NCBI GenBank assembly: GCA_009729775.1
Contig: GCA_009729775.1_4081.1
Direction: 5' to 3' (one strand)
Source: Escherichia coli
GTDB lineage: Bacteria; Pseudomonadota; Gammaproteobacteria; Enterobacterales; Enterobacteriaceae
Length of the DNA: 64,000 nucleotides
This document shows, one piece after another, positions 8,601 through 64,000 of this stretch. The number at the start of each line of letters is the position of its first letter. Position 1 is the first letter of the stretch. The position numbers and the translations under genes are program-made. The notes under the pieces were generated by a model. The model was given only the letters and a program-made list of their open reading frames with translations, was not told the origin of the DNA and ran no database searches.

Positions 8601-11600
8601 AATATGATAGTTCAACTGATAGTTATGTGACAAAATACTATTTCTGGGTACGTGATACAATTTATGTACCACCACTACATACCAGAACAAAATCATGTAC
8701 TGACATTGCTCGTATTATTAAAGATCCAACACAGCTAAACATTCCTTGGTTCGCTCCAATCAATGAAAACTCGTTTATTCTTAGTAATATGCAATTTAAA
8801 GTGAATGATGATACCAGTATTTTAACTGTTTCTTATTACATGGATAGTACTGAAGTTGTTAAACATGACCAGTATCAACTATGTAAAGAAGGTGACAGCT
8901 ATAACTTTAACCCACTAATTTGGGATTCAATGTGGAACTCACTAATTGGTCAAGAAACAACTGAATCAGGTTCTGTGATTAATTTATTATATCCAGATGT
9001 TGATAACGGTTTAGGTTCAAACAAAACTTGGTTCCAAAATGTTATAGAAGCTCGTAGAAACTTTGTAGAAAGTGCTAATAATTATTATAGGTCACAAAAC
9101 ATAACCACTAATAGTGTTGTTATGGAAGATGTGTTTAATGTTAAAACCACTGAAGTTAACCCGAATGAAGTTTCTTTCCGTGTATTGTCTTACAATAATG
9201 AATTAGTTATTGCAGTTGAAAGTGATAAATTTAAAGAAAATGACGCTGTTATTTTAAGTACTAGTGGATATCTACCAAATCCATTAACTTCTAGTGCTGT
9301 TTATTTTATTCACTTCGACGAAAATGGATATATTCAGTTAATGAATAGTCCAGCAAACGCGGGTAGTGTTGTTACTATAACGTTAGAGAACAAAGGTGAG
9401 GGACAACATAAAATGATTAAACAATCTGATTATGTTGAATCACTAGGAACTTCATTGGACATGACTCAGTACTGGTCATATGCTGATTGGTATGATGTTG
9501 GGTATGATAGTAACACGACTTATACTCAAGAGTCAAGCTTAGAAGATGCTAATACTAAAAACTACCAAGTTGGCGATATTATCAGAGTTACCGATAGTGA
9601 AAACATTTGGACATTGTATATTAAATCACAATCACGCGATTCAATTTATTGGAAAGCGATTGGTCGTGAAAACAGTACAGTTGAACTCAATGATATGCTT
9701 TACGCAGATTATAGTGTTCATAATGATAATGGTTCACTAAGCAATCGTGAAATCAACGTTCGTAAAGCACTAGCTTTACTCAAAAATTCTTTCGATTTAC
9801 ATCAAAGCGAAATTGTTTTTGATATGGTCAAATATGTACATGTTGAACAAAGTGTTGTGGATTGGGTATTTAAAACATCATATATCTATATTGTTGGTTT
9901 GGAACAATCATTAGTTCAAAACTATTCAAACGATAATTTGATTAATCAAATTGTTGAATATTTTGAAGAAGTTAAACCTTATAGAACTAAAATTCGTTCA
10001 CAAATAGAGCAAAAGACATCTGATGATGATTTAATAAAAGGTCTATGTAATGATTTAGATCCTAATGGATATATTTTCGTTGACGGTTCTTGGATCAAAA
10101 CTGAAAAAGATATTTGGGATTATGAGTACGCTCAATTTAATGAAATTACCCAAAAATGGGAACAGGTAGGTTCACTACCAAGTGATTTCGTTACACCAAA
10201 TAGAAGATTCCAAGAAATTGATATTATTATGCATTATGATAATATTCAGTGTAAACCAAATGAAGATTTGGCAAGCATAAATGAATTAGTAAGTGTTAAT
10301 AACAAATATCAATCCAATGAAAAGGATGCTGTTAGTAACTATGAATTACAACGTTATATATATTCTTTCCCAGAATATAGTGAAGAAACTTTCGATCTTC
10401 TTATTGCTTATCAAATGCAAATCTACTATCCAGAATTGGATGTAACACTAGGAACAGCATATGGCGTTAACCAGTGGTATAAAGACCATGCGGAAGATTT
10501 AGAAGCAACTGATGAATTTACTGCTACATTGGAGCGTGTTTATAAAGAATCAACGCAGAACGATATGTTTACTGACCTTAGACAATATGTTCAGTATAAC
10601 ACATTGGCAAACCGTTTGAAACTTTATAAAGATATAAGTGATGAGAAAATTCACGATGAAGTTGGTTGTGGATTTAGTGGACTTACCTATAATGACAATC
10701 CTAGTACTAGACTTCCATTAGGCTTTTCTTCTAGTAATGATTATAACTATGGATATTTTGAAATAAGCAGTGAACTGTATCAAAAATATATTTCATTAAT
10801 TAAAGATAAAAATCCTGACGCATCAGACTATGAAGTAAAAGTTAAACTTGAAGTTGAGTATGGTGTATATGTTTATCGTTATGATGAAGTAGGTGGTGAT
10901 ACCCGTTTCTATACTGATGCTATTCACGTATTAGCAGGTATGAGAGGGTTATTCGACAAAGACGCTACTGATAAGTACGAAAAAGCTGAAGAGATTCTTA
11001 GTAAGACCCCAATTGATATCTATGCAATTACAATGATTCCACGAAAATATGTTTACTTAAATGTTAACGGTGTATATCAAAGTATACCTGATGAACAAAG
11101 TATTGATGATTTCATGGAAGATTATTTTATCACAAATGGTGAAATGATTGAACTAGCTGAAATAAATCTAGATGATTTACCACTAGATCAAAATAATCCA
11201 ATGTATTCTGATTATCAATATATACTTGATAGTATTACTGAAGCTAAGTACTTCAATGATATGAATGCATTTGATAACCTAGCATTGGAATCTCAAACTT
11301 CTTCAATAAAATGGGAAGTTAAAGATGATGAAGTTGATCCTTATATTGTGGATATATCTGACATAAACCCTTCTGGGCGTGATGTTGGTCAAATTAGATT
11401 TACAGTTGATGGATATGGGTTTGACAATGTATCTCTTGTACAATTACGTGATAACAGCAGATATCAAACTGAAGGTATGGCAATTATCAATCCATATAAA
11501 CATACAGAAGCAATTGTTAGTATTCCTTCATATGCTAAGATTGAAAATGATATTAATAAAACAACATCGAAGTTTGATGAAAAATATTTCTATCGTGTGA

Positions 11601-12676
11601 GATCTATTAATAGCTTAACTGAAGCAGAAATAGTTGACAATGACCTATCTGATGGTGATAAGGTGATGATTTTCACTCCTGATGGTGAAGATTTTGTGAG
11701 ATATCAAAATCACACATGGGAAACAATCTTGCGTGTATCTAACATCAAAAACAATACAACTCCGATCCTATTCACTGTAAGAAATACAGGTAAAGAAACG
11801 ATTGAATTGATTGATGAGAGTACTGGTGCAGTTCTCCGTTATGATAATATCACTCTTGCACAACAAAATGAGCCAGTACAGCCTCTTGCATTGAACATTG
11901 TTCGTGTTAGAACATTTGCTGACCCAGAATTTGTGAAGAATGGTATCAAATTGTACGAACAAAATAGAAATTACACAATTGATGTAATTAATTATGATGT
12001 TTTCTACGATACTACTTTAAATGGTGGTAAGTACAATGACGGAATAACACCAGATGACGTTGACGTTTGGATAATCTCTAACGAAATATTTGATGTTGAT
12101 GGAATTACTATCGACAACGGTTATAACCTACCAATTACTGGTGCGGGAGTTCTTAGTGAATTAGCAAGAACTAAAATGACTGATAGTTTAGAAATCAACG
12201 TTATTGAATATGATTCAAGTGTTATTCAACCGTTTAGAAATAATGAAGGTATATGGGTTTATGGATATCCAATGGTTGACGGTATGTACATCGGTGTTGT
12301 TGGTGGCACGGTTACTAACATCACAACCATTAGTGAAGAAAATACAACCTATGTTTCTCAACCTAAATCAATAAGTCCTTATAGTATTAGAAATAATGTT
12401 TTATCCGGTTCTGCCGCGAACATGAATGATATTATATCGATTGGATATGAAAAAGTTGAAGTTAGAAATGCAAATAATTTACTCCGTGGAGTAATGTATA
12501 GTGCAGAACATGATTTTAAACTTAATACTACATATTCATTCAATGGAATTAATTTAGGTAATTATGATATGTTAAAACGTTACACACAAAATAGTTACAC
12601 TATAGATCTTTCAGTATACACTGATAGTCTACAAGTTAGTGGTAATGATATTAAAAATATATTATTAGTTAAGTAA
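2675..12676 (+). CDS. giant virion-associated protein (3333 aa in ORF track)
   Basis: Uninterrupted 10-kb ORF. The likely true start is the ATG at 2705 (MTNNFKF...), 7 nt after a GGAG motif. Its position between structural genes suggests a tail/baseplate or fibre component; no motif recognised. Confidence 0.85.
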   Translation: MNERIIWSPKMTNNFKFQPTQMAEAVQKKLFIKRLPEWMQGLEDIQKVSDDVIQQWFNPAENELVDGYIGDMGSPAAAGNIFLHESTVARQLYQLSTAYVSKNDDSTIRSIQFYDDLVGYMNHYGALTDNESRLFNGKFYAWTPAINPNKMNNFSSYLWDTKNSYNITSPDYIVMERGALNGNTWSLQNFWYTLGETLEDGSILTEELMQDSRFIRARAPIIEYNKNIELINYGTKFRGTVDLFSDIIKPEDIVQKDINSGIRIDGIIPQDGMRILFTSIGNNGENNRIYNVYVKKMQDGTRVYGLALDPEEETESRPSGEPQDGDVVLITKGNEYGNSSMYWNGSLWVRAQSKTSVNVFPKFQLYDRNGIKLDNSTTYPSSNFKGSELFGFKINYNYATDSVYGYNIELGDYNYYIYENFLQSQRYTYDHLGKEVEIDGLYYYNIIDENNEMNLQTDWVRSEEYSKQFVKQTPQVQRTDMYRVFSTVYDMEVFKEPVDGMYAYVIEVDRTYQYYKADRETYLDWHPITGDGVQIVKYDHTFELAQKVLDNDSDIIEVVVDGVDVSKYTKNVSKGQVQSITLDSTVELDEDSVIQIRTYSSTVTPDKELGAYEVPINLQNNPYNSNIIYINQGDYTLHFQDIIQKNITRGSSDDFNDYEERLAKGLVNNGVGTKIIQNEASMLPLMAHTANEDIDLFEATMFMQSEYFRFINKFNTQMLRMYDENPSDFLQNSAANIVDAILTTINMGRDSSFPFYYDNVGSTSGFIRAFIPPTPQFLGILQAYVPEKATFLTAGSKPSCYNISHTGIISKAYRVINGVDKMDDVVYELENRIFNSIDNKFKDVDYVPVLNSDDLFPTPYFTKTEYSAEEKQTLLLRGYINFTATNGISNSTHDYDPNNWRTWNYTGTYYVVNGQSTEIPARGSWRAIYTDQYGTYRPATHPWEMFGFTQRPTWWNQEYEPTAVQVGERDSDVVYVYEALVMNEQGDLVPSGLWDIDGTIGDSSTGTILFGDRRGQYDKYKRFGVQPFKITKTGNKTSSGIDICVVEYIAPEILGLVSGSLNHRAEPWTYGDMGDMEFTYMNTTLFAYDQMMLLYKAKPAQFANYFWDTRNDNLKEVFTDGSQFLYGDTRKRINFDKNTVVHGENSTRTIGYQMFVSDHLMYQNKNITTKYGDVVRSSYINVGHKIGGFTKADQLTFNAKSFGLISQENQTIGLVRSNNIRDEQMSAIKITWNGSAYQIDGYDLVGAKFKYKLPVKNGRKVTLKLENRNVVHYNEWKSEASIEYGKVFNSYQEVYTFICGYGEYLKEHGWIFEDVNDSGAQQDWNTIAKDFVIWSQNSLVTGEFISCTPSAANAKFGADFGSVQSITQNNGGVWSLLDDNNQGIRQYEIETSRIGNIFTVRTLESNKRIALIRLSLCSYEHAVIFDDKTIFGDYIYQPTYGSIQELIKMYGYITGSWTGRLQAPGFIILEAGTLPSFEKLVSDFQHYYDSETPVSDVQLQELSNHLIGYQSRDYLQRMISSDVSRVDFYKGFIHDKGTNQVLERVLRVSKSYDTDEYKALQEWAFKIGTYGNIDGKKNLQFKLINDQFKQQPQMVSFDVNATSNGNGNHIVYFGEQGKDPRWITRPNGKFSFPMRSGRSENIQLPDIGPVTLDEVSYTTKDFSTAYNDRITYTNGKGENPESVWMFKDGNGLWNIFELVDTNVQMVSITPIENTDVYAEQFCKVTLTDNVPLEDGDYYYFVDETNFMPDTLTVESQYYTAGSDPKVMVVPFDTSIDIEFTDPDTRPRLYRYVSRFASTDERQAYIDKKYSFKAPQSTLFDRPTTYDERTNITELYLNVYDPINGVIPGAAMQNVTYTSPVDPAQYNSNGELIQAWGADKVGQVWWNTSTAFYLDYTRAIYDADGNVDIDATNEYKRYNWGRLLPHSTIDVLEWVCSPVEPYNWDKYCKDVAKKNKNNTMYLPSGTALEDNYSTFLEYDSSTDSYVTKYYFWVRDTIYVPPLHTRTKSCTDIARIIKDPTQLNIPWFAPINENSFILSNMQFKVNDDTSILTVSYYMDSTEVVKHDQYQLCKEGDSYNFNPLIWDSMWNSLIGQETTESGSVINLLYPDVDNGLGSNKTWFQNVIEARRNFVESANNYYRSQNITTNSVVMEDVFNVKTTEVNPNEVSFRVLSYNNELVIAVESDKFKENDAVILSTSGYLPNPLTSSAVYFIHFDENGYIQLMNSPANAGSVVTITLENKGEGQHKMIKQSDYVESLGTSLDMTQYWSYADWYDVGYDSNTTYTQESSLEDANTKNYQVGDIIRVTDSENIWTLYIKSQSRDSIYWKAIGRENSTVELNDMLYADYSVHNDNGSLSNREINVRKALALLKNSFDLHQSEIVFDMVKYVHVEQSVVDWVFKTSYIYIVGLEQSLVQNYSNDNLINQIVEYFEEVKPYRTKIRSQIEQKTSDDDLIKGLCNDLDPNGYIFVDGSWIKTEKDIWDYEYAQFNEITQKWEQVGSLPSDFVTPNRRFQEIDIIMHYDNIQCKPNEDLASINELVSVNNKYQSNEKDAVSNYELQRYIYSFPEYSEETFDLLIAYQMQIYYPELDVTLGTAYGVNQWYKDHAEDLEATDEFTATLERVYKESTQNDMFTDLRQYVQYNTLANRLKLYKDISDEKIHDEVGCGFSGLTYNDNPSTRLPLGFSSSNDYNYGYFEISSELYQKYISLIKDKNPDASDYEVKVKLEVEYGVYVYRYDEVGGDTRFYTDAIHVLAGMRGLFDKDATDKYEKAEEILSKTPIDIYAITMIPRKYVYLNVNGVYQSIPDEQSIDDFMEDYFITNGEMIELAEINLDDLPLDQNNPMYSDYQYILDSITEAKYFNDMNAFDNLALESQTSSIKWEVKDDEVDPYIVDISDINPSGRDVGQIRFTVDGYGFDNVSLVQLRDNSRYQTEGMAIINPYKHTEAIVSIPSYAKIENDINKTTSKFDEKYFYRVRSINSLTEAEIVDNDLSDGDKVMIFTPDGEDFVRYQNHTWETILRVSNIKNNTTPILFTVRNTGKETIELIDESTGAVLRYDNITLAQQNEPVQPLALNIVRVRTFADPEFVKNGIKLYEQNRNYTIDVINYDVFYDTTLNGGKYNDGITPDDVDVWIISNEIFDVDGITIDNGYNLPITGAGVLSELARTKMTDSLEINVIEYDSSVIQPFRNNEGIWVYGYPMVDGMYIGVVGGTVTNITTISEENTTYVSQPKSISPYSIRNNVLSGSAANMNDIISIGYEKVEVRNANNLLRGVMYSAEHDFKLNTTYSFNGINLGNYDMLKRYTQNSYTIDLSVYTDSLQVSGNDIKNILLVK

Positions 12677-55852: not shown

Positions 55853-56251
55853 TTATTTCCTTCTATTTCTTTGAAAAGCTTTAACAGCTTTAATAATACT
55901 GTTACACATTCGTTCAGTCAAATACTTTTGACATTCTCGTACATCAATGTACATGAACTTATCCAATTCTGGATGACTCTTACCATATCTATTAGTGTAA
56001 GTACTTTTACAAACTAATTCATCTGGTATTGGTTTGTCTTTGGCAGTATAAAAGAAAAGTACTAACCTTTTTCCCTTTCTATAGGATACATCACCAAGAA
56101 ACAGAAGATCATCTTCATCGATTTCGTATCCTGTCTCTTCGAAACATTCACGTACAGCAGCTTCTTTGAAAGTTTCATTACCCTCAGCTTTCCCTTTAGG
56201 TAAATCCCAATGATTCTGTCCGTGTTGTATGTCCGATAAGTATCTGACCAT
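55853..56251 (-). CDS. Nudix hydrolase
   Basis: Nudix box GKAEGNETFKEAAVRECFEETGYEI. ORF track begins with GTG 56254; ATG at 56251. An extended -10 (TGgTATAAT) lies ~12 nt upstream, suggesting a near-leaderless mRNA. Confidence 0.75.
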   Translation of the reverse strand: MVRYLSDIQHGQNHWDLPKGKAEGNETFKEAAVRECFEETGYEIDEDDLLFLGDVSYRKGKRLVLFFYTAKDKPIPDELVCKSTYTNRYGKSHPELDKFMYIDVRECQKYLTERMCNSIIKAVKAFQRNRRK

Positions 56252-56362
56252 CACGATAAAATATTATACCACAACTATAACGCATATCTTATCTCTTTGT
56301 CATCAATCGATGTTCAGATACTAATAATTATATCAGTTATTGGTTTTTTGTCCCACTATTTT

Positions 56363-57475
56363 TTAGAACATTTGTTTGATTGCTTCGTAACGAAGTTCAC
56401 AAACAAAATCACGAATTTCTGACGTTTCAAGTTCACCATCTTTGACCATTTGCTGAATATCAGGCAATTCAACATCAGTATAACGATCATAAACTTTAAT
56501 AATTAGATCTTCAAGTTCTAAATCAATTTCTTTTCGCAAAATGAAGTATTCCAAAACTTTATAAAGGAATTCTTCACCTCCGTTATTTTTAATATTCATA
56601 TCCAATAAAATATTACCCATTTCAATAGGGGTCTTTTTACGGAATGTTTTGATATCATCACGGAAACGTTTGATATAATTACTAAATTTAACATACTTAA
56701 CTGGAACTTTAATAGCACCGTTAAGTACTGAATCATTATTTACTTCTTCATTTTCAAGAAGAATAGACCACAGAAAATATGGTTTATATACATCCGTACA
56801 GTTCTCTGCAATATAATCAATAAGGTCTAAATTCTTTTTGGTCAAAGATGTATTAAACACCTTTTCGTAATAACCAAATTTACTTAGCGTCTTAAGGAAC
56901 TTTGCAGGCTTTTCTTCGGAAAATGCTTTTTCGAATTCCACAAAAACACGGTCAGGAACAAGATGATTTAGTTCACCACTATTGACCATTCCAATAGCGA
57001 GTTCCTCAGTGCTTTCATGGATAGTAAAGTCTGAATAACGAGTAGCAAATCGAGCAAGACGTAACACGCGTAATGGATCTTCTTTAAAATGGTCAGAAAC
57101 ATGACGTAGTATCTTGTTCTTGATATCAGCTTTACCACCGTATGGATCGATGTGAATTTGTAGTACTGGATCATACGCAATTGCATTAATTGTAAGGTCA
57201 CGGCGATACAAATCTTGTTCTAGTGTTACGCCTTTTGTATCCACTTCAAAGCCACCATATCCAGTACCAGTTTTACGCTCAGTACGGGCTAATGCGTGTT
57301 CATTACCTTCTGGACTTAGATATACTGGGAAATCCTTACCTACTTGCTTATAGCCAATACTTTGCAAGTACTTAAGATCAGATTCGGATGCACCAACAAT
57401 GACATAATCTTTGTCTTTTGCACGGATGCCCATTAAACGGTCACGGACGTAACCGCCAACCAAATACTTTTTCAT
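56363..57475 (-). CDS. cca: CCA-adding tRNA nucleotidyltransferase (class II head domain)
   Basis: MKKYLVGGYVRDRLMGIRAKDKDYVIVGAS parallels E. coli Cca MKIYLVGGAVRDALLG...DRDWVVVG; the RRDLTINA motif is present. At 370 aa it is shorter than E. coli Cca, so an HD domain is probably absent. Confidence 0.85.
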   Translation of the reverse strand: MKKYLVGGYVRDRLMGIRAKDKDYVIVGASESDLKYLQSIGYKQVGKDFPVYLSPEGNEHALARTERKTGTGYGGFEVDTKGVTLEQDLYRRDLTINAIAYDPVLQIHIDPYGGKADIKNKILRHVSDHFKEDPLRVLRLARFATRYSDFTIHESTEELAIGMVNSGELNHLVPDRVFVEFEKAFSEEKPAKFLKTLSKFGYYEKVFNTSLTKKNLDLIDYIAENCTDVYKPYFLWSILLENEEVNNDSVLNGAIKVPVKYVKFSNYIKRFRDDIKTFRKKTPIEMGNILLDMNIKNNGGEEFLYKVLEYFILRKEIDLELEDLIIKVYDRYTDVELPDIQQMVKDGELETSEIRDFVCELRYEAIKQMF

Positions 57476-57476
57476 G

Positions 57477-57599
57477 TTATTCCCCCATCAGCCAATCACG
57501 TAGACGTTCCCAGAAGCCTTTTGGTTGGTATTCTGGGTATTCATATTCATCTGTGCCTTGCTCGGAAACACCCCAATCTTCTTCTAACATAGCAATCAT
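57477..57599 (-). CDS. small ORF (40 aa, acidic, Trp-containing) not in ORF track
   Basis: MIAMLEEDWGVSEQGTDEYEYPEYQPKGFWERLRDWLMGE; GGAGG 4 nt upstream; exactly fills the gap between two genes, with TAACATG-type junction to the cca start. Confidence 0.3.
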   Translation of the reverse strand: MIAMLEEDWGVSEQGTDEYEYPEYQPKGFWERLRDWLMGE

Positions 57600-57610
57600 A
57601 ATGCCTCCAA

Positions 57611-58033
57611 TTAAATTAATCTATCACGTAGACGGTCGTAATATTTTTTGTGTATAGCTAGTATACACTGATATGCAGAATAGTCAATACCAAATGTATC
57701 ATCAATGAACATGTACTGATCAAGTGTTTCCGGTCCATTATCATCAACTGGTAATGTCCCTTCTTTTTTTGATAGTGTGTGCCACATCAACTCACTTTCA
57801 ATATGGTGAGTTGCGTATGTCAATTCTATCTTACTTTTTCGTAGTAAAATTAACAATTCATCATTGTCGTCGAGTGCATTACGAAATTTAATACGAACTG
57901 TACCCTGGAAATTATTAGTGTACATAACACGATGATGATTGTATGAAATCAAACCACGTCTTTCAGTACTGATTTCGTGTTCAGCAAAGTACTTTAACGT
58001 TTCATTAAATTTTGGAATTTTAGTAACGTCCAA
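57611..58033 (-). CDS. hypothetical protein, paralogue B
   Basis: C-terminal EGTLPVDDNGPETLDQYMFIDDTFGIDYSAYQ is paralogous to the upstream gene; apparent TTG start behind GAGGA, overlapping the upstream gene by 14 nt. Confidence 0.6.
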   Translation of the reverse strand: MDVTKIPKFNETLKYFAEHEISTERRGLISYNHHRVMYTNNFQGTVRIKFRNALDDNDELLILLRKSKIELTYATHHIESELMWHTLSKKEGTLPVDDNGPETLDQYMFIDDTFGIDYSAYQCILAIHKKYYDRLRDRLI

Positions 58034-58436
58034 TCACATAATCCTCATAAAGTTCGTATACCCTCATTATACTCTGATATGTATCAAAGTCAATACCAAA
58101 GGTATCCTCAATGAACTGATATTGCAAAAACTCTTCCTCTGTAGCAGCAATAGGAAGAGTCCCGTTTCGTTGTTCTGTGGATTGAACATCCTCAATATAC
58201 ATCAACACTATACCTTCATCCAGATTTATATCTATCATAAAAACATCTTCACTATAAAATATGTTATATGTACGGATGAAGAGATTTCCTGTTCTATCAT
58301 AACTTGACACGTGTGTTTCATAATACATTTTATCTAAACTAAAGAACAAACCTGTACTATCTGGCTTTTTAGTATTTTTTAATTTAATTTCGATAGCATC
58401 AATAATAGGTTTAATATCAAATTTTTTCATAGACAA
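58020..58436 (-). CDS. hypothetical protein, paralogue A
   Basis: NGTLPIAATEEEFLQYQFIEDTFGIDFDTYQ; 138 aa. Confidence 0.6.
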   Translation of the reverse strand: MSMKKFDIKPIIDAIEIKLKNTKKPDSTGLFFSLDKMYYETHVSSYDRTGNLFIRTYNIFYSEDVFMIDINLDEGIVLMYIEDVQSTEQRNGTLPIAATEEEFLQYQFIEDTFGIDFDTYQSIMRVYELYEDYVIGRY

Positions 58437-58612
58437 ATCTCATATCGATTAGTGTTTGGATCATAGCAATAATTATCATTAACTTTAACACCAGGTTTAA
58501 GTGTTATTGTTGTTCCTACTTCAGTACTGGATTCCGCATCACAGTAAATCATCACACCAACTCCTGCGAGTAAGGCTACGATACATACAATTACACCAAT
58601 GGTATATTCCAT
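58427..58612 (-). CDS. small single-pass membrane protein
   Basis: 61 aa; N-terminal hydrophobic helix IGVIVCIVALLAGVGVMIY; Cys-rich C-terminus. Confidence 0.5.
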   Translation of the reverse strand: MEYTIGVIVCIVALLAGVGVMIYCDAESSTEVGTTITLKPGVKVNDNYCYDPNTNRYEICL

Positions 58613-58625
58613 TTCAATTCCTCGG

Positions 58626-59021
58626 TTATAAAAAGTAATTATACAGTTTATTGTACAATATAAAAAGGTCTTTCACATTATCATAAGTAATATCAGATAC
58701 ATCATGAATTAATGATAACTGAAAAAATGAAGCTTCGTCTATTTCTGCTGGAATTATAACATCACCATCGTCTTCGTCCATTTTATTAGTGTAGTATTTT
58801 ATGTGATCTACATTCAACTCAATAGAGAACGCAATGTTGGTTTTTGTATAATCTTCAATTAATCCAATATATTGAGATTTTTCATTAATAAAAAATCCAA
58901 TCCCAACACAACGGTTATCTGGATATGGATAGTACCATCTATTAATAACTAGGTGTTCAGGTAAGTCCATATCATGTGTTGATATTATAGATTTTACAAT
59001 TTCCATCCAGGAATAATTCAT
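58626..59021 (-). CDS. hypothetical protein
   Basis: 131 aa; GGAG SD; downstream of the HPF terminator. Confidence 0.6.
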   Translation of the reverse strand: MNYSWMEIVKSIISTHDMDLPEHLVINRWYYPYPDNRCVGIGFFINEKSQYIGLIEDYTKTNIAFSIELNVDHIKYYTNKMDEDDGDVIIPAEIDEASFFQLSLIHDVSDITYDNVKDLFILYNKLYNYFL

Positions 59022-59033
59022 AATTAAAACTCC

Positions 59034-59065
59034 ATAAGAAAAGGGACAGAATTAATCTGTCCCTT
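59034..59065 (-). terminator. terminator hairpin downstream of hpf
   Basis: AAGGGACAG-aattaat-CTGTCCCTT followed by a U-rich tract on the minus strand. Confidence 0.45.
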
Positions 59066-59074
59066 TAGTATATA

Positions 59075-59407
59075 TTACTCTTCGTTTTCTGTCAAATCAT
59101 CAAGAACTGGGTGTTCTGGATGGTTTCGGCGGTGTAATTTAATGCTTTTGTCTTTACTGAATACAGTTTCCATTTTTTCAAATGAATCACCAATTGCTTT
59201 GTATAAATCTGCTGCATCGGCAGTAACTGATTTACTACCTGATGTTAGAGTCACAGAGTATTGAGACTTATGCTCTTTCTTCACATGAACTTCAATATCC
59301 ATTACAGTTGAAGTACGGAACTTTTCAAGACATTTAGCACCATCGTAAATTGCATCTTGAATTGCTGTAGTAAAATCAACATTACCTTGAATATTTAATT
59401 TTAGCAT
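59075..59407 (-). CDS. hpf: ribosome hibernation promoting factor (HPF/RaiA/YfiA family)
   Basis: MLKLNIQGNVDFTTAIQDAIYDGAKCLEKF... aligns with E. coli HPF MQLNITGNNVEITEALREFVTAKFAKLEQYF and the C-terminal LYKAIGDSFEKMETVFSKDK with DMYAAIDGLIDKLARQLTKHK; AAGGTAGG SD. Confidence 0.75.
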   Translation of the reverse strand: MLKLNIQGNVDFTTAIQDAIYDGAKCLEKFRTSTVMDIEVHVKKEHKSQYSVTLTSGSKSVTADAADLYKAIGDSFEKMETVFSKDKSIKLHRRNHPEHPVLDDLTENEE

Positions 59408-59423
59408 AATTTACCTACCTTTT

Positions 59424-60383
59424 TTAGAGTGAACTTAACAACAAATCTGCTCGGTTTGTAACTTGACGATACCATAAGGAATTCATTATTTCTTTTTTAA
59501 ATTTCTTAGGGTTATCATTTTTTACACTGTTCCAAAGTTTATTAAACGAAGCTAACTTATCTACTCCCATTGTATAGCACATTTCAAAAAGAATACGTTG
59601 TTGTTCTTTGGTCAGATTTACTGCTTGTTTTTTCTGCATCAATAATAAAAAGTCATCATATGTTCTTTTCATATCTTGCATTAAAAGTTTGTTGGCTTGA
59701 GCTTTGGTAATACCGTTTCTGTACTTGATAGCATCAGATTCTTTTCTTCCCAAATAATGCCCATAACCGATTGTATAATTACCTTTCATATCCTTGTAAG
59801 GATGAAATTTAGAATTGTGGAAAGGAACTCCGACTTTCCCACCAAGTAAACGGCGTTTGTTCTTGGACTGAAATTCAATTGAACCTTCAGCTTCTTTGAT
59901 GTGATTGACAATTTCTGGATCATTATAATCAAACTGTACAGTCACATCTGGTAACAATACGTTCTTCAAATCCTCTTTTGTTGGGATAAAGATACCCTGA
60001 GAAGTATGAAGAGTAGCATTTAAATTGATATTTTTCAACAAAATAACATACTCTTCAAGTTGTACATTTTTAGGTTTAAACTTTTTAGCAATAGAATAAT
60101 AACTATCACCAGGTTGAACCGTATAATGCTTCTCGCCGCGTGGAACATCCTTTGATATTTCTACCTTTGGTAATTCCTGCTTTTGAATTTGCGTAACTTG
60201 TGGTTTTAAATTGTGTACCTGACTTTCGTCCGATGATGATACACGATCATTTTGAGAAAAACCATAAAATCCAATCGCAGCGACAAGTACTGTGCAAACT
60301 AGAACACCATAAGTAGTCTTAGTTTTCAGTGCTTTTTTCGCTTGTTTCAAAACGCCTCCTTTGTTGATTGTTAAGATGGGCAA
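59424..60383 (-). CDS. membrane-anchored lysozyme: signal-anchor + LysM + GH24 (T4 lysozyme-like) domain
   Basis: GNYTIGYGHYLG and SLWYRQVTNRADLL parallel T4 lysozyme YTIGIGHLL and SRWYNQTPNRAKRV; LysM-like YTVQPGDSYYSIAKKF; N-terminal TM helix YGVLVCTVLVAAIGFYGF. No ATG before residue ~200; candidate starts are the TTG at 60383 or the TTG at 60350, which lies 4 nt after AAAGGAGG. Confidence 0.85.
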   Translation of the reverse strand: MPILTINKGGVLKQAKKALKTKTTYGVLVCTVLVAAIGFYGFSQNDRVSSSDESQVHNLKPQVTQIQKQELPKVEISKDVPRGEKHYTVQPGDSYYSIAKKFKPKNVQLEEYVILLKNINLNATLHTSQGIFIPTKEDLKNVLLPDVTVQFDYNDPEIVNHIKEAEGSIEFQSKNKRRLLGGKVGVPFHNSKFHPYKDMKGNYTIGYGHYLGRKESDAIKYRNGITKAQANKLLMQDMKRTYDDFLLLMQKKQAVNLTKEQQRILFEMCYTMGVDKLASFNKLWNSVKNDNPKKFKKEIMNSLWYRQVTNRADLLLSSL

Positions 60384-60466
60384 TCACAAAGATGGCAAAG
60401 AGGCCATTTGCAAAAGCCTCATCGGACTTTCTACAGTACAAAAACGTTCTTTTCAAATGTTTAAGT

Positions 60467-60494
60467 AGTATAGCATATTTTTATTTTATTACAA
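60467..60494 (-). promoter_or_regulatory. sigma70-like promoter (TTGTAA-N16-TGcTATACT) upstream of the lysozyme gene
   Basis: Minus-strand -35/-10 pair with extended -10 TG; ~115-nt leader containing a GAGGC...GCCTC hairpin. Confidence 0.4.
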
Positions 60495-60518
60495 GACATA
60501 TTTACTGTAAAAACCACA

Positions 60519-60929
60519 TTAATCGTAGTAGGTTCTACCTACAGTTATGTGATATTTAAAGTACTTGGTTGGTAGTCCTAGTTCATTTCTAATATGTGTG
60601 ATGAAATCATCTTCAAATTCAATGATAAAGAATGAACCTGGATTCTTTTTATCTTTTACTATCTCAATACAAGGATTGAACTTTATCTTTACTTTCATTC
60701 CATCGTATTTTTTCCAGAACTCTTCATGTGGTGGTACTTCACCACGCACTATACTAACATGTGCTCCCCATTGAGGATCTTTAACGTCAATATGTAAATC
60801 AGTTCTGATGAAGTACTGGTAGTATCTAACCAACTGTAATGGAAGTTGCAGTACTAACCAGAAGTCCTTCTTCTTTTTCATAGTGCCACGGTCTGGATCA
60901 TACACCAGAGTTCCTTCCATTTCAATCAT
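60519..60929 (-). CDS. 2H phosphoesterase (LigT/Acb1-like cyclic phosphodiesterase fold)
   Basis: Two H-x-[ST]-x motifs about 70 aa apart (GAHVSIVRG and KYHITVGR), the hallmark of the 2H superfamily; 136 aa. Confidence 0.5.
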   Translation of the reverse strand: MIEMEGTLVYDPDRGTMKKKKDFWLVLQLPLQLVRYYQYFIRTDLHIDVKDPQWGAHVSIVRGEVPPHEEFWKKYDGMKVKIKFNPCIEIVKDKKNPGSFFIIEFEDDFITHIRNELGLPTKYFKYHITVGRTYYD

Positions 60930-60936
60930 ATTTTAC

Positions 60937-61140
60937 CTATAAAATTACATATATGTTTTTATTTTCAATACGAACATATGTTTCCAAAACATCTTTCGGA
61001 ATTTTATTACTTGTTTTGAACCATGTAGTATTCTCTACTAAAACAAAAGTTTCACCTTCAGTTTCACCAAATGTACTTAGTGCATAAATGAAGTAATTTG
61101 GTGCTGCACTACAATAGATATCAGCATTAATTTCAATCAT
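60937..61140 (-). CDS. hypothetical small protein
   Basis: 67 aa ORF. Confidence 0.5.
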   Translation of the reverse strand: MIEINADIYCSAAPNYFIYALSTFGETEGETFVLVENTTWFKTSNKIPKDVLETYVRIENKNIYVIL

Positions 61141-61143
61141 ATG

Positions 61144-61275
61144 TTACACCACAATAAAGCTTAATACAACGAGTGTAATAAACACACCCACAATAGCAGT
61201 CATTTCTGGGTTTGCATCATATGTATAGCGTATACATTTTAGAAAATCTTTACCAAATTTCTTTAGTCCATTCAT
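61144..61275 (-). CDS. small membrane protein ORF (43 aa) not in ORF track
   Basis: MNGLKKFGKDFLKCIRYTYDANPEMTAIVGVFITLVVLSFIVV; AAGGA SD 6 nt upstream; C-terminal TM helix; stop abuts the next start. Confidence 0.3.
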   Translation of the reverse strand: MNGLKKFGKDFLKCIRYTYDANPEMTAIVGVFITLVVLSFIVV

Positions 61276-61286
61276 ATATTTTCCTT

Positions 61287-61643
61287 TTATTTCTTGTGTA
61301 AAGGTTCATCACTTTCATAATAAATTGTATCATTATTTCGCTCTATAGTAAAGCTCTTTTGACACAACTCTTCAGCTAAACCCTTTGCATAGTTTAATAC
61401 ATCTCGGTTGAGATATACTTCTTCTTTTGGAAAGCGTGGGTACTGAATAATACGAGCACACATCCCACTTTCAAGACCGCCAGTGTAGATATATTCACAG
61501 GGAATTAATTGTACACAAAAGCCATACTTAAACGCAAATTTTCTTGTGTACTCTCTTGCTGTTTGAATATCACCAGCAATATGGATATTCCAGTACTGTG
61601 TCTCCACTGTACCTTTATCGATGTATTTCATACTCATCTCCAA
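61287..61643 (-). CDS. hypothetical protein
   Basis: 118 aa ORF. Confidence 0.6.
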   Translation of the reverse strand: MEMSMKYIDKGTVETQYWNIHIAGDIQTAREYTRKFAFKYGFCVQLIPCEYIYTGGLESGMCARIIQYPRFPKEEVYLNRDVLNYAKGLAEELCQKSFTIERNNDTIYYESDEPLHKK

Positions 61644-61660
61644 TTATAGCACTAAAAATC

Positions 61661-62050
61661 TCACTTTCCCAACTCTTCTATGATTCTTTTTATTGAATCA
61701 TGATTTTCCAGACATAAAGTACTGTAATTTCTGCCAGTTTTTTCATTGAGGTCGTCGATTTCAATCATAAGATATCCATATGTAATATCTTGAACCCTAC
61801 TTCGTTTTACCCTTGAGTACAGCTTGATTGGTACTGATACACGAGTATTCAAAAACAATTCAGATAAATCATAACGATACACCTGGTATTCATTCTTGGA
61901 ACGCTTACGACTGTACGATTCTAAACACTGCGGATAACGTCTATCAAAAATACTGGTCCTTAGCTGAAGAATCATCGGATCTAACTTATGTGAGTAATAT
62001 TTTTTAATTATTTTCTCAAAACGCTTAATGTGACGTTTCTTCCATCTCAT
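61661..62050 (-). CDS. basic hypothetical protein (possible nucleic-acid binding)
   Basis: 129 aa, Lys/Arg-rich N-terminal half; 4-nt overlap with the upstream gene. Confidence 0.6.
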   Translation of the reverse strand: MRWKKRHIKRFEKIIKKYYSHKLDPMILQLRTSIFDRRYPQCLESYSRKRSKNEYQVYRYDLSELFLNTRVSVPIKLYSRVKRSRVQDITYGYLMIEIDDLNEKTGRNYSTLCLENHDSIKRIIEELGK

Positions 62051-62544
62051 GTTCTAACTCCTTTCAATAATACAATAGGAAAATACTGTGTATCTCTATC
62101 AGAAATACTATTACAGTACTCAATAATTTCTTGATGGAGTGTGTTTATATAAATGCTAGGATATGGAATTGGTGTTTGTATTAGTCCAGAACTATAAACA
62201 CAATCAGTTCTTTGACAATCAATATAGTGTGTTGTTGGTATACCTTTACCACGTTCCTCAACTACAATTGAGTACGTGTCAGCAATAAAGATGAACGCAT
62301 TGTTAATTGATACATATTGGAGGGAATACACATCATCATGAACTTCAATCAAAGGACCATCAAAATTCATCAATACCGAACGGCGATATCCTAACACATC
62401 ACTCATTGCATCGAACTGTTCTTGTGATGAAAGAAAACAAAAACACGTATCACGACATACGTCTATAAAACGCTTAAATGTTTCTGTTTCTATAAGCATA
62501 TAATTTTCCTTAAAAAAGACCCCACATAGTGAGGTCAAATACAT
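62047..62544 (-). CDS. hypothetical protein
   Basis: 165 aa ORF; stop abuts the upstream gene. Confidence 0.6.
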   Translation of the reverse strand: MYLTSLCGVFFKENYMLIETETFKRFIDVCRDTCFCFLSSQEQFDAMSDVLGYRRSVLMNFDGPLIEVHDDVYSLQYVSINNAFIFIADTYSIVVEERGKGIPTTHYIDCQRTDCVYSSGLIQTPIPYPSIYINTLHQEIIEYCNSISDRDTQYFPIVLLKGVRT

Positions 62545-62769
62545 TTAATCGTTATCATCATCCAATGCGTCACGGTAAACATAATAAACATGTGCACCTA
62601 GCAAAGCAATAAGTACAATAAAGACTAACCAGAATGGTACAAAATGCAGTACTAGAGAAAATGCCAGTACTGTAATAACCATTACAACTGAACTGAAAAT
62701 AAGACGGACTGCTTTTTCAAATCCAGATAGTAAATTTTTAAAGATTTTTTTCATAAATGAATCAACCAT
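62545..62769 (-). CDS. two-TM small membrane protein (holin-like)
   Basis: 74 aa; two hydrophobic helices (AVRLIFSSVVMVITVLAFSLVL, FWLVFIVLIALLGAHVYYVY) and a charged C-terminal tail RDALDDDND; GAGGAT SD. Confidence 0.5.
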   Translation of the reverse strand: MVDSFMKKIFKNLLSGFEKAVRLIFSSVVMVITVLAFSLVLHFVPFWLVFIVLIALLGAHVYYVYRDALDDDND

Positions 62770-63112
62770 TTTTAATCCTCAAGAAAGTATGCTTACATTT
62801 TAGTTTATTACCATAGAATGAAATAGGAACATTAAACATTTCAATCTTATCTTCTTTCAACAAACGTAGAATATCAGGATCATTTTTTGTTTGAATACAA
62901 TGAAGACCATTAACCTGAATTTCTAAACCTTTCTTTAGATATTCATAAATTTTTTGACGACGCATCCCGCCATAACTATCATTATGTACCACATCACGTA
63001 GTTCTTTATATTCTTCCTTTAATGTTCGGTCTACAAGTGTTCCATCTTTCTTCCTGATCTCTGCAATACATTTATATTGATTTGAACCTCTAAGAGCCAT
63101 GTTGTACCTCAT
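62762..63112 (-). CDS. hypothetical protein
   Basis: 116 aa ORF, basic. Confidence 0.6.
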   Translation of the reverse strand: MRYNMALRGSNQYKCIAEIRKKDGTLVDRTLKEEYKELRDVVHNDSYGGMRRQKIYEYLKKGLEIQVNGLHCIQTKNDPDILRLLKEDKIEMFNVPISFYGNKLKCKHTFLRIKNG

Positions 63113-63569
63113 TAGGGTATTTTTTCATCAATTCGTGTAAACGCTGAATCTCTTGTTCTTTTTTTCTATCACTCTCGTATTTTCGAGAAAGTTTCTTTTT
63201 TGTATTTGCTTCTTCTAATCTAATATCAGTACAGAATTTGTCATTTTTTAAAAAATTGATACGCAATGCATTGTAAACAGCATTGAAATCGTTTCCTAAT
63301 TCTTTAGACGTGTCAGTGTAATTATGAAAATACATGTTATTTGTCATATTTACATGTTCAATTACTGCACCATTATGAGTTACGATAAACATTATATCGC
63401 CATACTGTTCATGTGGTTTTGAACGATATAGATATATATGTTGACGTAAATAATCTTTTAATTCATGTTCAATGCCACTTTGTTCATAACTTTGATATAC
63501 TAAAACCTCACCATCAGTTGAACTGTTGTCAGATTCATATGGTTCGCGGATAATTATAAGATTATACAT
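63090..63569 (-). CDS. hypothetical protein
   Basis: 159 aa ORF, Lys/Glu-rich C-terminus. Confidence 0.6.
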   Translation of the reverse strand: MYNLIIIREPYESDNSSTDGEVLVYQSYEQSGIEHELKDYLRQHIYLYRSKPHEQYGDIMFIVTHNGAVIEHVNMTNNMYFHNYTDTSKELGNDFNAVYNALRINFLKNDKFCTDIRLEEANTKKKLSRKYESDRKKEQEIQRLHELMKKYPNEVQHGS

Positions 63570-63577
63570 ATTACTCC

Positions 63578-63859
63578 TTATACCGGAGATACGGTACTCA
63601 ACATTAGTAAAGCTGTATTTTCATCAATTTCATGATAGTTGTCGCATACAAGTGTTTCCAACAAATCAGGATGATAATAATAATGTTCATAATCAGTATC
63701 ATTAGGAATATGATGATATACAAATACAATATCAAAAACATCATCATCATTTTCACACTTGAAACGCTTTAATTCATCGACACTTTCAACAAAGCCATAT
63801 TCTTCAAAAGCAGTTGTACCATCTGGTAGTTTCATCCATGCACTTGCAACAATTTTCAT
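63578..63859 (-). CDS. hypothetical acidic protein
   Basis: 93 aa ORF. Confidence 0.55.
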   Translation of the reverse strand: MKIVASAWMKLPDGTTAFEEYGFVESVDELKRFKCENDDDVFDIVFVYHHIPNDTDYEHYYYHPDLLETLVCDNYHEIDENTALLMLSTVSPV

Positions 63860-63876
63860 AAATTTGTGAATCCTTA

Positions 63877-64000
63877 TTATTTTGTAATGTTTAGTTTAGA
63901 AACGAAGTATTCTTTGGCTTCTTCATATGTCATTGAAGTATACATAGGATTCCATTTATCGTCAATATCGATAAGTACTTTAACTTCCATTACATCTTCT
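63877..64000 (-). CDS. possible small ORF running off the window edge (partial)
   Basis: Minus-strand frame ...MEVKVLIDIDDKWNPMYTSMTYEEAKEYFVSKLNITK-stop is open to the window end; the start may lie beyond the window. Confidence 0.25.
   Translation of the reverse strand, partial: EDVMEVKVLIDIDDKWNPMYTSMTYEEAKEYFVSKLNITK

Follow-up and report, generated by a model that had tools for sequence, protein, structure and literature searches.

Membrane-anchored LysM lysozyme as a candidate endolysin of RaK2/121Q-like jumbo phages, with a conserved leader RNA and a retained weak start codon

Host lysis by the RaK2/121Q-like jumbo phages is unsolved, and three lysozyme paralogues compete for the role of endolysin. 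A stretch of 64,000 nt filed under Escherichia coli (contig GCA_009729775.1_4081.1; hereafter the window) contains one of the three, a LysM-GH24 lysozyme gene at 59424-60350 on the minus strand. The locus raises the question of whether this gene encodes the endolysin and, if so, how the enzyme would be controlled. On balance it seems probable that the gene encodes a Sec-exported endolysin that is anchored in the inner membrane by its N-terminus. The membrane-anchored LysM lysozyme itself is already known and published; the leader RNA, the conservation of the start codon and a T-like holin candidate are the sole additions to published knowledge.

The window belongs to a phage closely related to Escherichia phage 121Q (Asteriusvirus, 348.5 kb). 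Bases 58000-63200 are 99.0% identical to 121Q over their full length, and about 30 further Asteriusvirus genomes are 85-98% identical to the same bases. A window position x corresponds approximately to 121Q position 314541 - x with the strand reversed. Tail and baseplate genes occupy bases 1-55000, and the lysozyme gene is among the small minus-strand genes of the final 10 kb. The gene and the parts of its product are as follows.

59424-60350, minus strand: LysM-GH24 lysozyme gene, 308 aa, start TTG at 60350, stop codon at 59424-59426; homologue of 121Q gp532.
60315-60350, minus strand: Lys-rich segment MKQAKKALKTKT, predicted cytoplasmic, with five Lys in residues 1-12.
60258-60314, minus strand: transmembrane domain (TMD) TYGVLVCTVLVAAIGFYGF, residues 13-31, 19 aa.
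59985-60131, minus strand: LysM-like peptidoglycan-binding domain, residues 74-122.
59427-59921, minus strand: GH24, or T4-lysozyme-like, catalytic domain, residues 144-308.

The earlier note on this DNA, made from the letters alone, had described a LysM domain followed by a T4-lysozyme-like domain, and Pfam, structure prediction and Foldseek bear this out. The Pfam profile Phage_lysozyme (PF00959) scores 45.3 bits (cut-off 22.3) over residues 193-299 of the longer, 319-aa reading of the frame. Glu155, Asp187 and Thr193, the counterparts of E11, D20 and T26 in T4 lysozyme, are invariant among 29-32 homologues, and the triad motifs EAEG and YKD-x5-TIGYGH align with gp586, gp587 and T4 e. An AlphaFold2 model, made with an alignment of 29 homologues, gives a lysozyme domain at residues 144-308 with a predicted local distance difference test score (pLDDT) of about 90 and has no confident structure for residues 1-72. 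In a Foldseek search against the PDB the top 50 matches are all T4 lysozyme entries or T4 lysozyme fusion proteins (E about 1e-6, target-normalised TM-score 0.66, 24-29% identity). Profile, catalytic triad and modelled fold all point to a GH24/T4-type lysozyme, for which muramidase activity is predicted.

The catalytic domain has a clade-specific insertion of 23 aa relative to T4 lysozyme between the catalytic Glu and Asp, which are therefore 32 residues apart instead of 9. The insertion region (59760-59860, minus strand; lysozyme residues about 158-185) contains the invariant residues Q161, R166, L168, G171, F182, P184 and Y185, and is predicted to add extra beta-strands to the N-terminal lobe. 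A shorter version of it is present in gp586 and gp587.

The LysM domain is matched by PF01476 at 24.4 bits (cut-off 20.9), a partial match to profile positions 1-17 of 43. The model has the beta-alpha-alpha-beta fold at residues 74-122 with a pLDDT of 88-92, and two distant lysozyme homologues have precomputed PF01476 matches. Profile and predicted fold together are those of a LysM domain. A Ser/Gln-rich linker of 42 aa (residues 32-73) connects it to the TMD. As judged from the sequences, this architecture is conserved in every genus of the clade.

The family is large and the protein has diverged considerably within it. The 121Q gene for gp532 is a 927-nt coding sequence of identical extent whose product is about 98% identical to the window lysozyme, and phrog_15410 (PHROGs) matches over the full length. 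There are about 63 homologous clusters, each of roughly 300 aa and many on contigs of about 350 kb, and protein identity across the family ranges from 46 to 80%. Over this range the weak start codon has been retained. The first internal Met of the lysozyme is residue 188, within the catalytic domain, so a non-ATG start is unavoidable; the claim of the earlier note that translation must begin at TTG is correct, and the start can be refined to 60350, which has a ribosome-binding site:

60355-60362, minus strand: Shine-Dalgarno sequence AAAGGAGG, 4 nt upstream of TTG 60350.

TTG 60350 is the annotated start in 121Q (gp532), G17 and phAPEC6 (gp293c). CBB and fHe-Yen9-04 have an in-frame stop three codons 5' of the homologous TTG, which is therefore the sole possible start in these phages. 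The arrangement of AAGGAG(G/A) followed by TTG or GTG is present in all other genera. Of 21 loci, which represent at least five genera, 13 start with TTG, seven with GTG and one with ATG, the last in the RaK2 group only; among 65 annotated 121Q genes ATG is used by 59 and TTG by six. The retention of a TTG or GTG start over such a range of protein identity is notable at the sequence level. The earliest in-frame start of the window gene, TTG 60383 (319 codons), was rejected since it is not preceded by a Shine-Dalgarno sequence, which TTG 60350 has, and since TTG 60350 is the start annotated in relatives.

The N-terminus has the layout of a signal-arrest-release (SAR) endolysin. A signal-anchor-like helix behind a Lys-rich segment had been noticed earlier and is confirmed as a TMD at residues 13-31 after five Lys. 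The number of basic residues before the TMD is 3-5 in the family (mean 3.3), and the layout is conserved across it. The Kyte-Doolittle mean over 19 aa is 1.86 for the TMD of the window lysozyme and 2.14 for the family average. The SAR domains of P1 Lyz and R21 score 2.07-2.11, and three small transmembrane (TM) proteins in the neighbourhood score about 2.8, well above the lysozyme TMD. The protein is thus predicted to have an N-terminal TMD behind a short basic segment, with the catalytic domain on the periplasmic side, as a SAR endolysin does. A lipoprotein reading of the N-terminus was rejected for want of a lipobox and of a conserved Cys.

Upstream of the gene, the 168-nt intergenic region 60351-60518 contains a leader that is conserved in structure:

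60396-60457, minus strand: conserved structured leader, consisting of hairpin P1, the single-stranded motif GTAGAAAGTCC and hairpin P2.

The 11-mer GTAGAAAGTCC (60424-60434) has a single occurrence within the window and is found once per locus, at the same relative position, in 18 related loci. By BLAST the leader is present in one copy per genome in 25 phage records, and it precedes the lysozyme gene in every RaK2-like genus. The stems differ in sequence between lineages: P1 is AGTAGTA/TACTATT, TAGTC/GACTA, TTAACTC/GAGTTAA, CAGTAT/ATACTG or CTAGTG/CACTAG, and P2 is GAGGC/GCCTC, GCGAC/GTCGC or GTGGCTT/AAGCCAC. The P2 loop TTTGTGCAAA is conserved across lineages.

In a MAFFT alignment of 13 leaders 86.5% of the cells pair, compared with 35-60% for slid partners, and six pairs change on both sides. 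The same alignment served to build a covariance model, which gives one match in each of the 17 lysozyme loci searched (E 5e-17 to 9e-7), four of which are outside the building set; neither the T4 e region nor about 170 kb of Asteriusvirus DNA from elsewhere has a match. In the alignment fitted to the model 88.5% of the cells pair (34-57% in slid controls), with two-sided changes in six pairs and 20 cells and a covariation score of 0.29 (at most 0.10 in controls); the values come from few independent lineages and from a structure derived from the same sequences, and the second alignment is by construction fitted to the model. An Rfam search of 59000-63000 gave no match at E <= 1. Three additional IMG/VR matches of the leader motif pattern were discarded as chance, because they lie in unrelated coding contexts without hairpins.

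The leader may act on translation of the lysozyme. RNAalifold suggests that GTAGAAAGTCC may instead pair with the 5' arm of P2, which would give the leader two mutually exclusive folds. In most lineages the Shine-Dalgarno sequence has a possible anti-Shine-Dalgarno partner upstream, as in CBB, where CTTCCTTATT can pair with AATAAGGAGG. Positions -14 to +3 have a mean pairing probability of 0.72 in 13 lineages and of 0.53 +/- 0.16 in 65 other 121Q genes, and the 121Q lysozyme ranks 4th of 65 in pairing of the Shine-Dalgarno sequence and start. These predictions are no more than suggestive of a tendency of the leader to pair the lysozyme Shine-Dalgarno sequence. In T4, a hairpin conceals the ribosome-binding site of gene e in early read-through transcripts and cuts lysozyme synthesis about 100-fold; late transcripts initiated within the hairpin are translated (PMC3014915). 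The leaders were inspected by eye for late promoters of the T4 type, either TATAAATA or the ATAAATA proposed for CBB, and none is placed so as to remove the sequence that pairs with the Shine-Dalgarno sequence. For sigma-70 promoters, a scan of 57400-64000 gave 39 sites where 36.9 are expected, and no promoter was called.

If the protein is the endolysin, the TMD would export it to the periplasm late in infection, where it would stay tethered as a SAR-type or signal-anchor protein, and degradation of the wall would turn lethal when the membrane is depolarised or the anchor released. Premature lysis would be limited at the level of synthesis by the weak TTG or GTG start and by pairing of the Shine-Dalgarno sequence with the leader, as in T4 e. 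The Lys-rich N-terminus may make release dependent on a partner, as K6 and K7 do in Mu gp22. The trigger is probably not one of the neighbouring membrane peptides; a holin encoded elsewhere is more likely, and the leading candidate is 121Q gp40.

In the RaK2 paper of 2013 neither a holin T nor an antiholin RI is reported, and three lysozymes are listed, ORF029, ORF073 and ORF078. Their 121Q counterparts are gp532, gp586 (162 aa, soluble) and gp587 (the 887-aa baseplate hub); gp532 is 30-35% identical to gp586 and gp587 and 30% identical to T4 e. The genes of gp586 and gp587 are just outside the window, and the LysUE1 primer sequence, with which the 162-aa lysozyme might have been located, is absent from it. 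The authors of the fEgEco12 study labelled a 220-aa protein as a holin from an HHpred match to 6PX4_B (probability 89.9%, E 2.6). This is the sole later holin label in RaK2/121Q-like phages and rests on a weak match. Its homologues are G17_00267 and 121Q gp40. Proteins of the gp40 family are 225-239 aa long and combine a single N-terminal TMD with about 190 aa of C-terminal domain; they occur in the same genera as the LysM lysozyme, and their size and topology agree with those of T (about 218 aa, a TMD at the N-terminus and a large periplasmic domain); in 121Q the gene is about 225 kb from that of the lysozyme. It is followed by a 105-aa protein that has a TMD at its N-terminus, and a (V/L)YKFVPD motif is common to both. 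The gp40 fold matches 6px4_T and 6pxe_T, with generic GAF domains scoring higher. No sequence similarity to T4 holin T was found, and phmmer against PDB sequences gave nothing useful. The gp39 protein and its RaK2 homologue are annotated as virion structural proteins, and 121Q gp40 carries a structural protein note. A T-type holin is a plausible identity for gp40, with a chance of about one half. The earlier note had left room for lysis genes elsewhere in the genome; this is plausibly true, as gp40 and gp586 are both encoded outside the locus.

The neighbouring membrane peptides had been put forward earlier as dispersed, holin-like partners of the lysozyme. They are listed here with the hairpin that separates one of them from the lysozyme.

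61144-61275, minus strand: 43-aa membrane peptide with a C-terminal TMD and a Shine-Dalgarno sequence; homologue of 121Q gp529; phrog_37784 (unknown function).
62545-62769, minus strand: 74-aa protein with two TMDs and a GAGGA Shine-Dalgarno sequence at M1; homologue of 121Q gp525; phrog_22328 (unknown function).
58427-58612, minus strand: 61-aa TM protein with a Shine-Dalgarno sequence; phrog_4189 (unknown function).
62518-62536, minus strand: terminator-like hairpin that parts the 74-aa gene from those leading up to the lysozyme, known from a scan and the G17 terminator annotation.

All three open reading frames (ORFs) are present at these positions, have Shine-Dalgarno sequences and are annotated in related genomes, and their small size and TMDs would suit a holin. 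A crude scan of about 140 kb of Asteriusvirus DNA assigns a TM segment to 10% of genes and, among small ORFs, to about 20%. Three nearby small TM ORFs are therefore expected by chance (P 0.5-0.85 for three among 12-20 small genes), and CBB has 50 predicted membrane proteins. The three ORFs have no Pfam match and no NCBIfam match above cut-off, and Pfam finds no DUF2730 releasin among the nine proteins at 59075-62769, which include them. Neither holin family membership nor a close linkage kept in every phage with the lysozyme was found for the 74-, 43- and 61-aa ORFs, and a holin role of the neighbouring peptides is unsupported beyond topology. The absence of a canonical adjacent holin-endolysin pair, also stated in the earlier note, holds: there is no adjacent holin in the window.

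The three peptides differ in distribution. BLAST of the peptides against 14 related loci found RaK2 homologues only, and a topology-based scan revealed a family of 43-46 aa. The homologues of the 43-aa peptide have 44-46 aa and a conserved N-P-x-x-T ahead of the TMD, and the 43-aa peptide has no C-terminal tail. The family is found 0.9-1.3 kb upstream of the lysozyme in 10 of 12 comparison loci (RaK2-, CBB-, GAP32-, BF- and Yen9-04-like). It is always directly upstream of, or one small gene from, a 2H-phosphoesterase-like gene and does not adjoin the lysozyme. No other small TM gene keeps its linkage with the lysozyme locus throughout the clade. The 74-aa protein is confined to Asteriusvirus and Alcyoneusvirus and usually abuts the thymidine kinase gene (tk). 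TMHMM on its Muenster homologue predicts two TMDs with both termini in the cytoplasm, so the two-TMD description made earlier was right; the charge of the tail (RDALDDDND, about 10 residues) is acidic and not basic. The 74-aa protein, gp39 and gp38 have no detected similarity to T4 RI, RI.1 or RI.-1. The 61-aa protein has a C-terminus that contains Cys and is probably periplasmic, and was not found at the corresponding position outside Asteriusvirus.

A lysis module made of these neighbours, in which the 74-aa protein would be a pinholin or a releasin-like partner of the Lys-rich N-terminus and the 43-aa peptide a co-factor, is improbable. The 74-aa protein does have the topology of a class-II holin and a pinholin-like size. 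In Mu, basic residues of the cytoplasmic N-terminus of the SAR endolysin tie its release to a protein that is tethered to the membrane and has an anionic domain in the cytoplasm, and here five Lys in 12 residues could face a protein that ends in DDDND; the 43-aa peptide also keeps its position near the lysozyme. These points are outweighed by the absence of holin and DUF2730 matches, the base-rate number of small TM ORFs and the absence of the 74-aa protein from CBB-, GAP32-, BF- and Yen9-04-like phages, which have the same lysozyme. Set against the releasin (Mu gp25, DUF2730), the 74-aa protein has an acidic tail of only about 10 residues and its gene is upstream of the lysozyme gene, at a distance of 2.2 kb and six genes and behind the terminator-like hairpin. 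The acidic tail also contrasts with those of holins, which are normally basic, both of its TMDs are strongly hydrophobic, unlike the SAR-type TMD1 of pinholins, and the 43-aa peptide tracks the 2H-phosphoesterase-like gene. That the lysozyme is instead a virion-associated lysin, a tail or ejection protein that crosses the wall at infection, is very unlikely. The resemblance of its catalytic domain to virion lysozyme domains of the gp5 and phiKMV gp36 types would fit this, and some records label it a tail lysozyme; the labels rest on domain homology only. Mass spectrometry of phAPEC6 and CBB virions revealed the 887-aa hub lysozyme but not the LysM lysozyme: gp293c was undetected in the phAPEC6 virion proteome, and the CBB virion table passes from CBB_183 to CBB_201, so CBB_187 is absent, and includes the hub CBB_240. 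The tail lysin that the earlier note had named as the outcome contrary to its reading is therefore unsupported. The gene is also located among RNA-repair, translation and nucleotide-metabolism genes and not in the structural module, and a virion protein would not be expected to carry an export or anchor signal at its N-terminus. The PA5oct omics paper makes no mention of an orthologue of the LysM lysozyme, and the phiKZ Tn-seq preprint deals with another phage family.

A stronger competitor, although still a doubtful one, is that the LysM protein is an accessory periplasmic muramidase and that gp586 and the T-like holin gp40 form the canonical pair. The LysM protein would then be permanently tethered or processed by signal peptidase, and would be made in small amounts to remodel or loosen the wall, for example so that the cell can enlarge, or to serve as a redundant second lysin. 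The purified gp586 homologue LysUE1 is muralytic in vitro once the outer membrane is permeabilised, and gp586 is likewise undetected in virion proteomes. The holes of T-type holins admit a soluble enzyme, and gp40 resembles T. With the long linker and LysM domain a tethered enzyme could reach the wall, low-level synthesis would agree with the weak start codon and the structured leader, and cells infected with Sharanji filament and bulge ahead of bursting. On the other hand, gp586 is 52% identical to the C-terminal lysozyme domain of the hub gp587 and its gene is between those of the hub and a gp25-like baseplate protein, which suggests a baseplate role. It is the LysM protein, not gp586, that has the T4 e-like position beside a NudE homologue, and induction of the CBB homologue is toxic.

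Several observations weigh against an anchored endolysin encoded by gp532. The sole functional datum on the protein is the toxicity of the CBB homologue, given as data not shown (PMC5259590), and gp586, with its activity in vitro and its absence from virions, could be the true endolysin. Gly, Ala, Ser and Thr make up 37% of the TMD in the window and 35% in the family, compared with 53-63% in P1 Lyz and R21, so a SAR assignment is compatible but not diagnostic. The N-terminus may contain a signal-peptidase site, for example GFS|Q. About 110 residues separate the TMD from the catalytic domain; since the linker and LysM domain lie between the two, tethering alone may not inactivate the lysozyme, and control of synthesis would therefore be more important than in P1 or phage 21. 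The TTG start is not rare in 121Q (9% of annotated genes), and occlusion of the Shine-Dalgarno sequence is about 1.2 standard deviations above background.

A more elaborate form of control, in which the leader and the TTG or GTG start act as a timing switch and the anchor is also released by a small acidic-faced partner or the 43-aa peptide, is possible but rather unlikely. The switch would consist of P1, GTAGAAAGTCC, P2, the alternative pairing of the motif with P2, occlusion of the Shine-Dalgarno sequence and the conserved start codon. It would be a counterpart of T4 gene e control, unrelated in sequence and without an evident internal late promoter. The release partner would be the 74-aa protein in Asteriusvirus and Alcyoneusvirus or the clade-wide 43-aa peptide, acting like a releasin and unrelated to DUF2730.

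The surrounding genes are consistent in their order. The 43-46-aa TM peptide is followed by the 2H-phosphoesterase-like gene, one more gene in some lineages, a gap of about 110-170 nt and the lysozyme. In most loci a homologue of HPF/RaiA comes directly after the lysozyme, and a CCA-adding enzyme, a NudE-type NUDIX protein and a glutaredoxin are encoded one to five genes further downstream. The transcription unit that contains the lysozyme probably ends at the following hairpin.

59040-59066, no strand assigned: terminator-like hairpin 3' of the HPF gene, from a scan and the G17 terminator annotation.

The region 55853-63000 (minus strand), together with 121Q genes 518-550, shares gene content with the tk-rI-e-nudE-gene 1 segment of T4. 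The shared homologues are nudE, the A1pp/macro protein tk.4 and the dNMP kinase (gene 1), with tk in Muenster and several Asteriusvirus genomes and the rI.-1 homologue, 121Q gp518 (E 5e-7), just outside the window. Genes for RNA repair and translation are interspersed (the CCA-adding enzyme and HPF, and an RNA ligase in CBB). Because homologues from the T4 gene e region surround it, gp532 is the positional counterpart of T4 e.

Some neighbouring genes have features of their own. The HPF/RaiA homologue, a ribosome hibernation factor, is encoded at 59075-59407 (minus strand), 17 nt 3' of the lysozyme (Ribosomal_S30AE, E 4e-9); the pairing with the lysozyme is kept in CBB-, Yen9-04- and L009-like phages and absent in RaK2 and Muenster. 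The 2H-phosphoesterase-like protein (136 aa, 60519-60929, minus strand) scores 26 bits against Pfam 2H-SAK (cut-off 27) and is about 56-61% identical across the clade; its fEgEco12 homologue is annotated from HHpred as an Acb1-like anti-CBASS nuclease. In CBB, the gene just upstream of the 46-aa TM peptide is CBB_183 (L005:2087-3601), a DUF2828 'RNA-binding protein' that was seen in the virion proteome with eight peptides despite its non-structural gene block. The structural part of the window is dominated by a 3333-aa ORF at 2675-12676 (plus strand), homologous to 121Q gp582; the phAPEC6 counterpart, gp245 (382 kDa), is present in the virion.

The analysis argues against a virion role of gp532, downgrades the nearby peptides as holin candidates and points to a T-like holin candidate elsewhere, while the leader and weak start offer a translational timing control that can be tested. 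Identifying the endolysin and its control has practical value, since these phages are developed for therapy and lysozymes as enzybiotics. The protein was described by Buttimer et al. 2017 (PMC5259590), who reported a TMD, a LysM-like domain and a lysozyme domain in CBB_187, GAP32 gp180, 121Q gp532 and RaK2 ORF029, predicted a SAR endolysin and stated that induction inhibits growth of E. coli (data not shown). The window lysozyme is of the same family and shows no difference as a protein; that report does not include the retention of a non-ATG start, the leader RNA, the 43-aa peptide as a conserved neighbour or a holin candidate.

Compared with the SAR endolysins P1 Lyz, R21, phiKMV gp45 and Mu gp22, the window lysozyme has in common a TMD behind basic residues, the range of hydrophobicity, a GH24-type muramidase and Sec export without a holin, which is predicted here. 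With Mu gp22 it also shares the Lys-rich N-terminus, in which K6 and K7 of Mu impose dependence on the releasin. In the known proteins the SAR domain is contiguous with the catalytic domain and regulates it, whereas here the 42-aa linker and LysM domain intervene; the TMD is also poorer in Gly, Ala, Ser and Thr, and there is no adjacent pinholin, holin or DUF2730 releasin. T4 gene e is similar in the GH24 fold, the triad, about 30% identity and a position in an early/middle-type region near a NudE homologue, and the tendency of the leader to pair the ribosome-binding site recalls early e transcripts. The T4 enzyme is soluble, has 164 aa and an ATG start, and depends on the large-hole holin T; the window lysozyme adds export and wall-binding modules, a TTG start and a longer leader (P1, motif and P2), inside which no T4-type late promoter is evident. 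In comparison with T4 holin T and antiholin RI (6PX4, 6PXE), 121Q gp40 and gp39 have no sequence similarity, and the fold of gp40 is generically GAF-like. The modular jumbo-phage endolysins phiKZ gp144 and EL gp188 likewise combine an N-terminal peptidoglycan-binding module with a catalytic domain, an unusual arrangement among phages of Gram-negative hosts (PMC5259590); they differ in being soluble, with another binding domain and a transglycosylase domain, and are encoded in a cassette with a holin.

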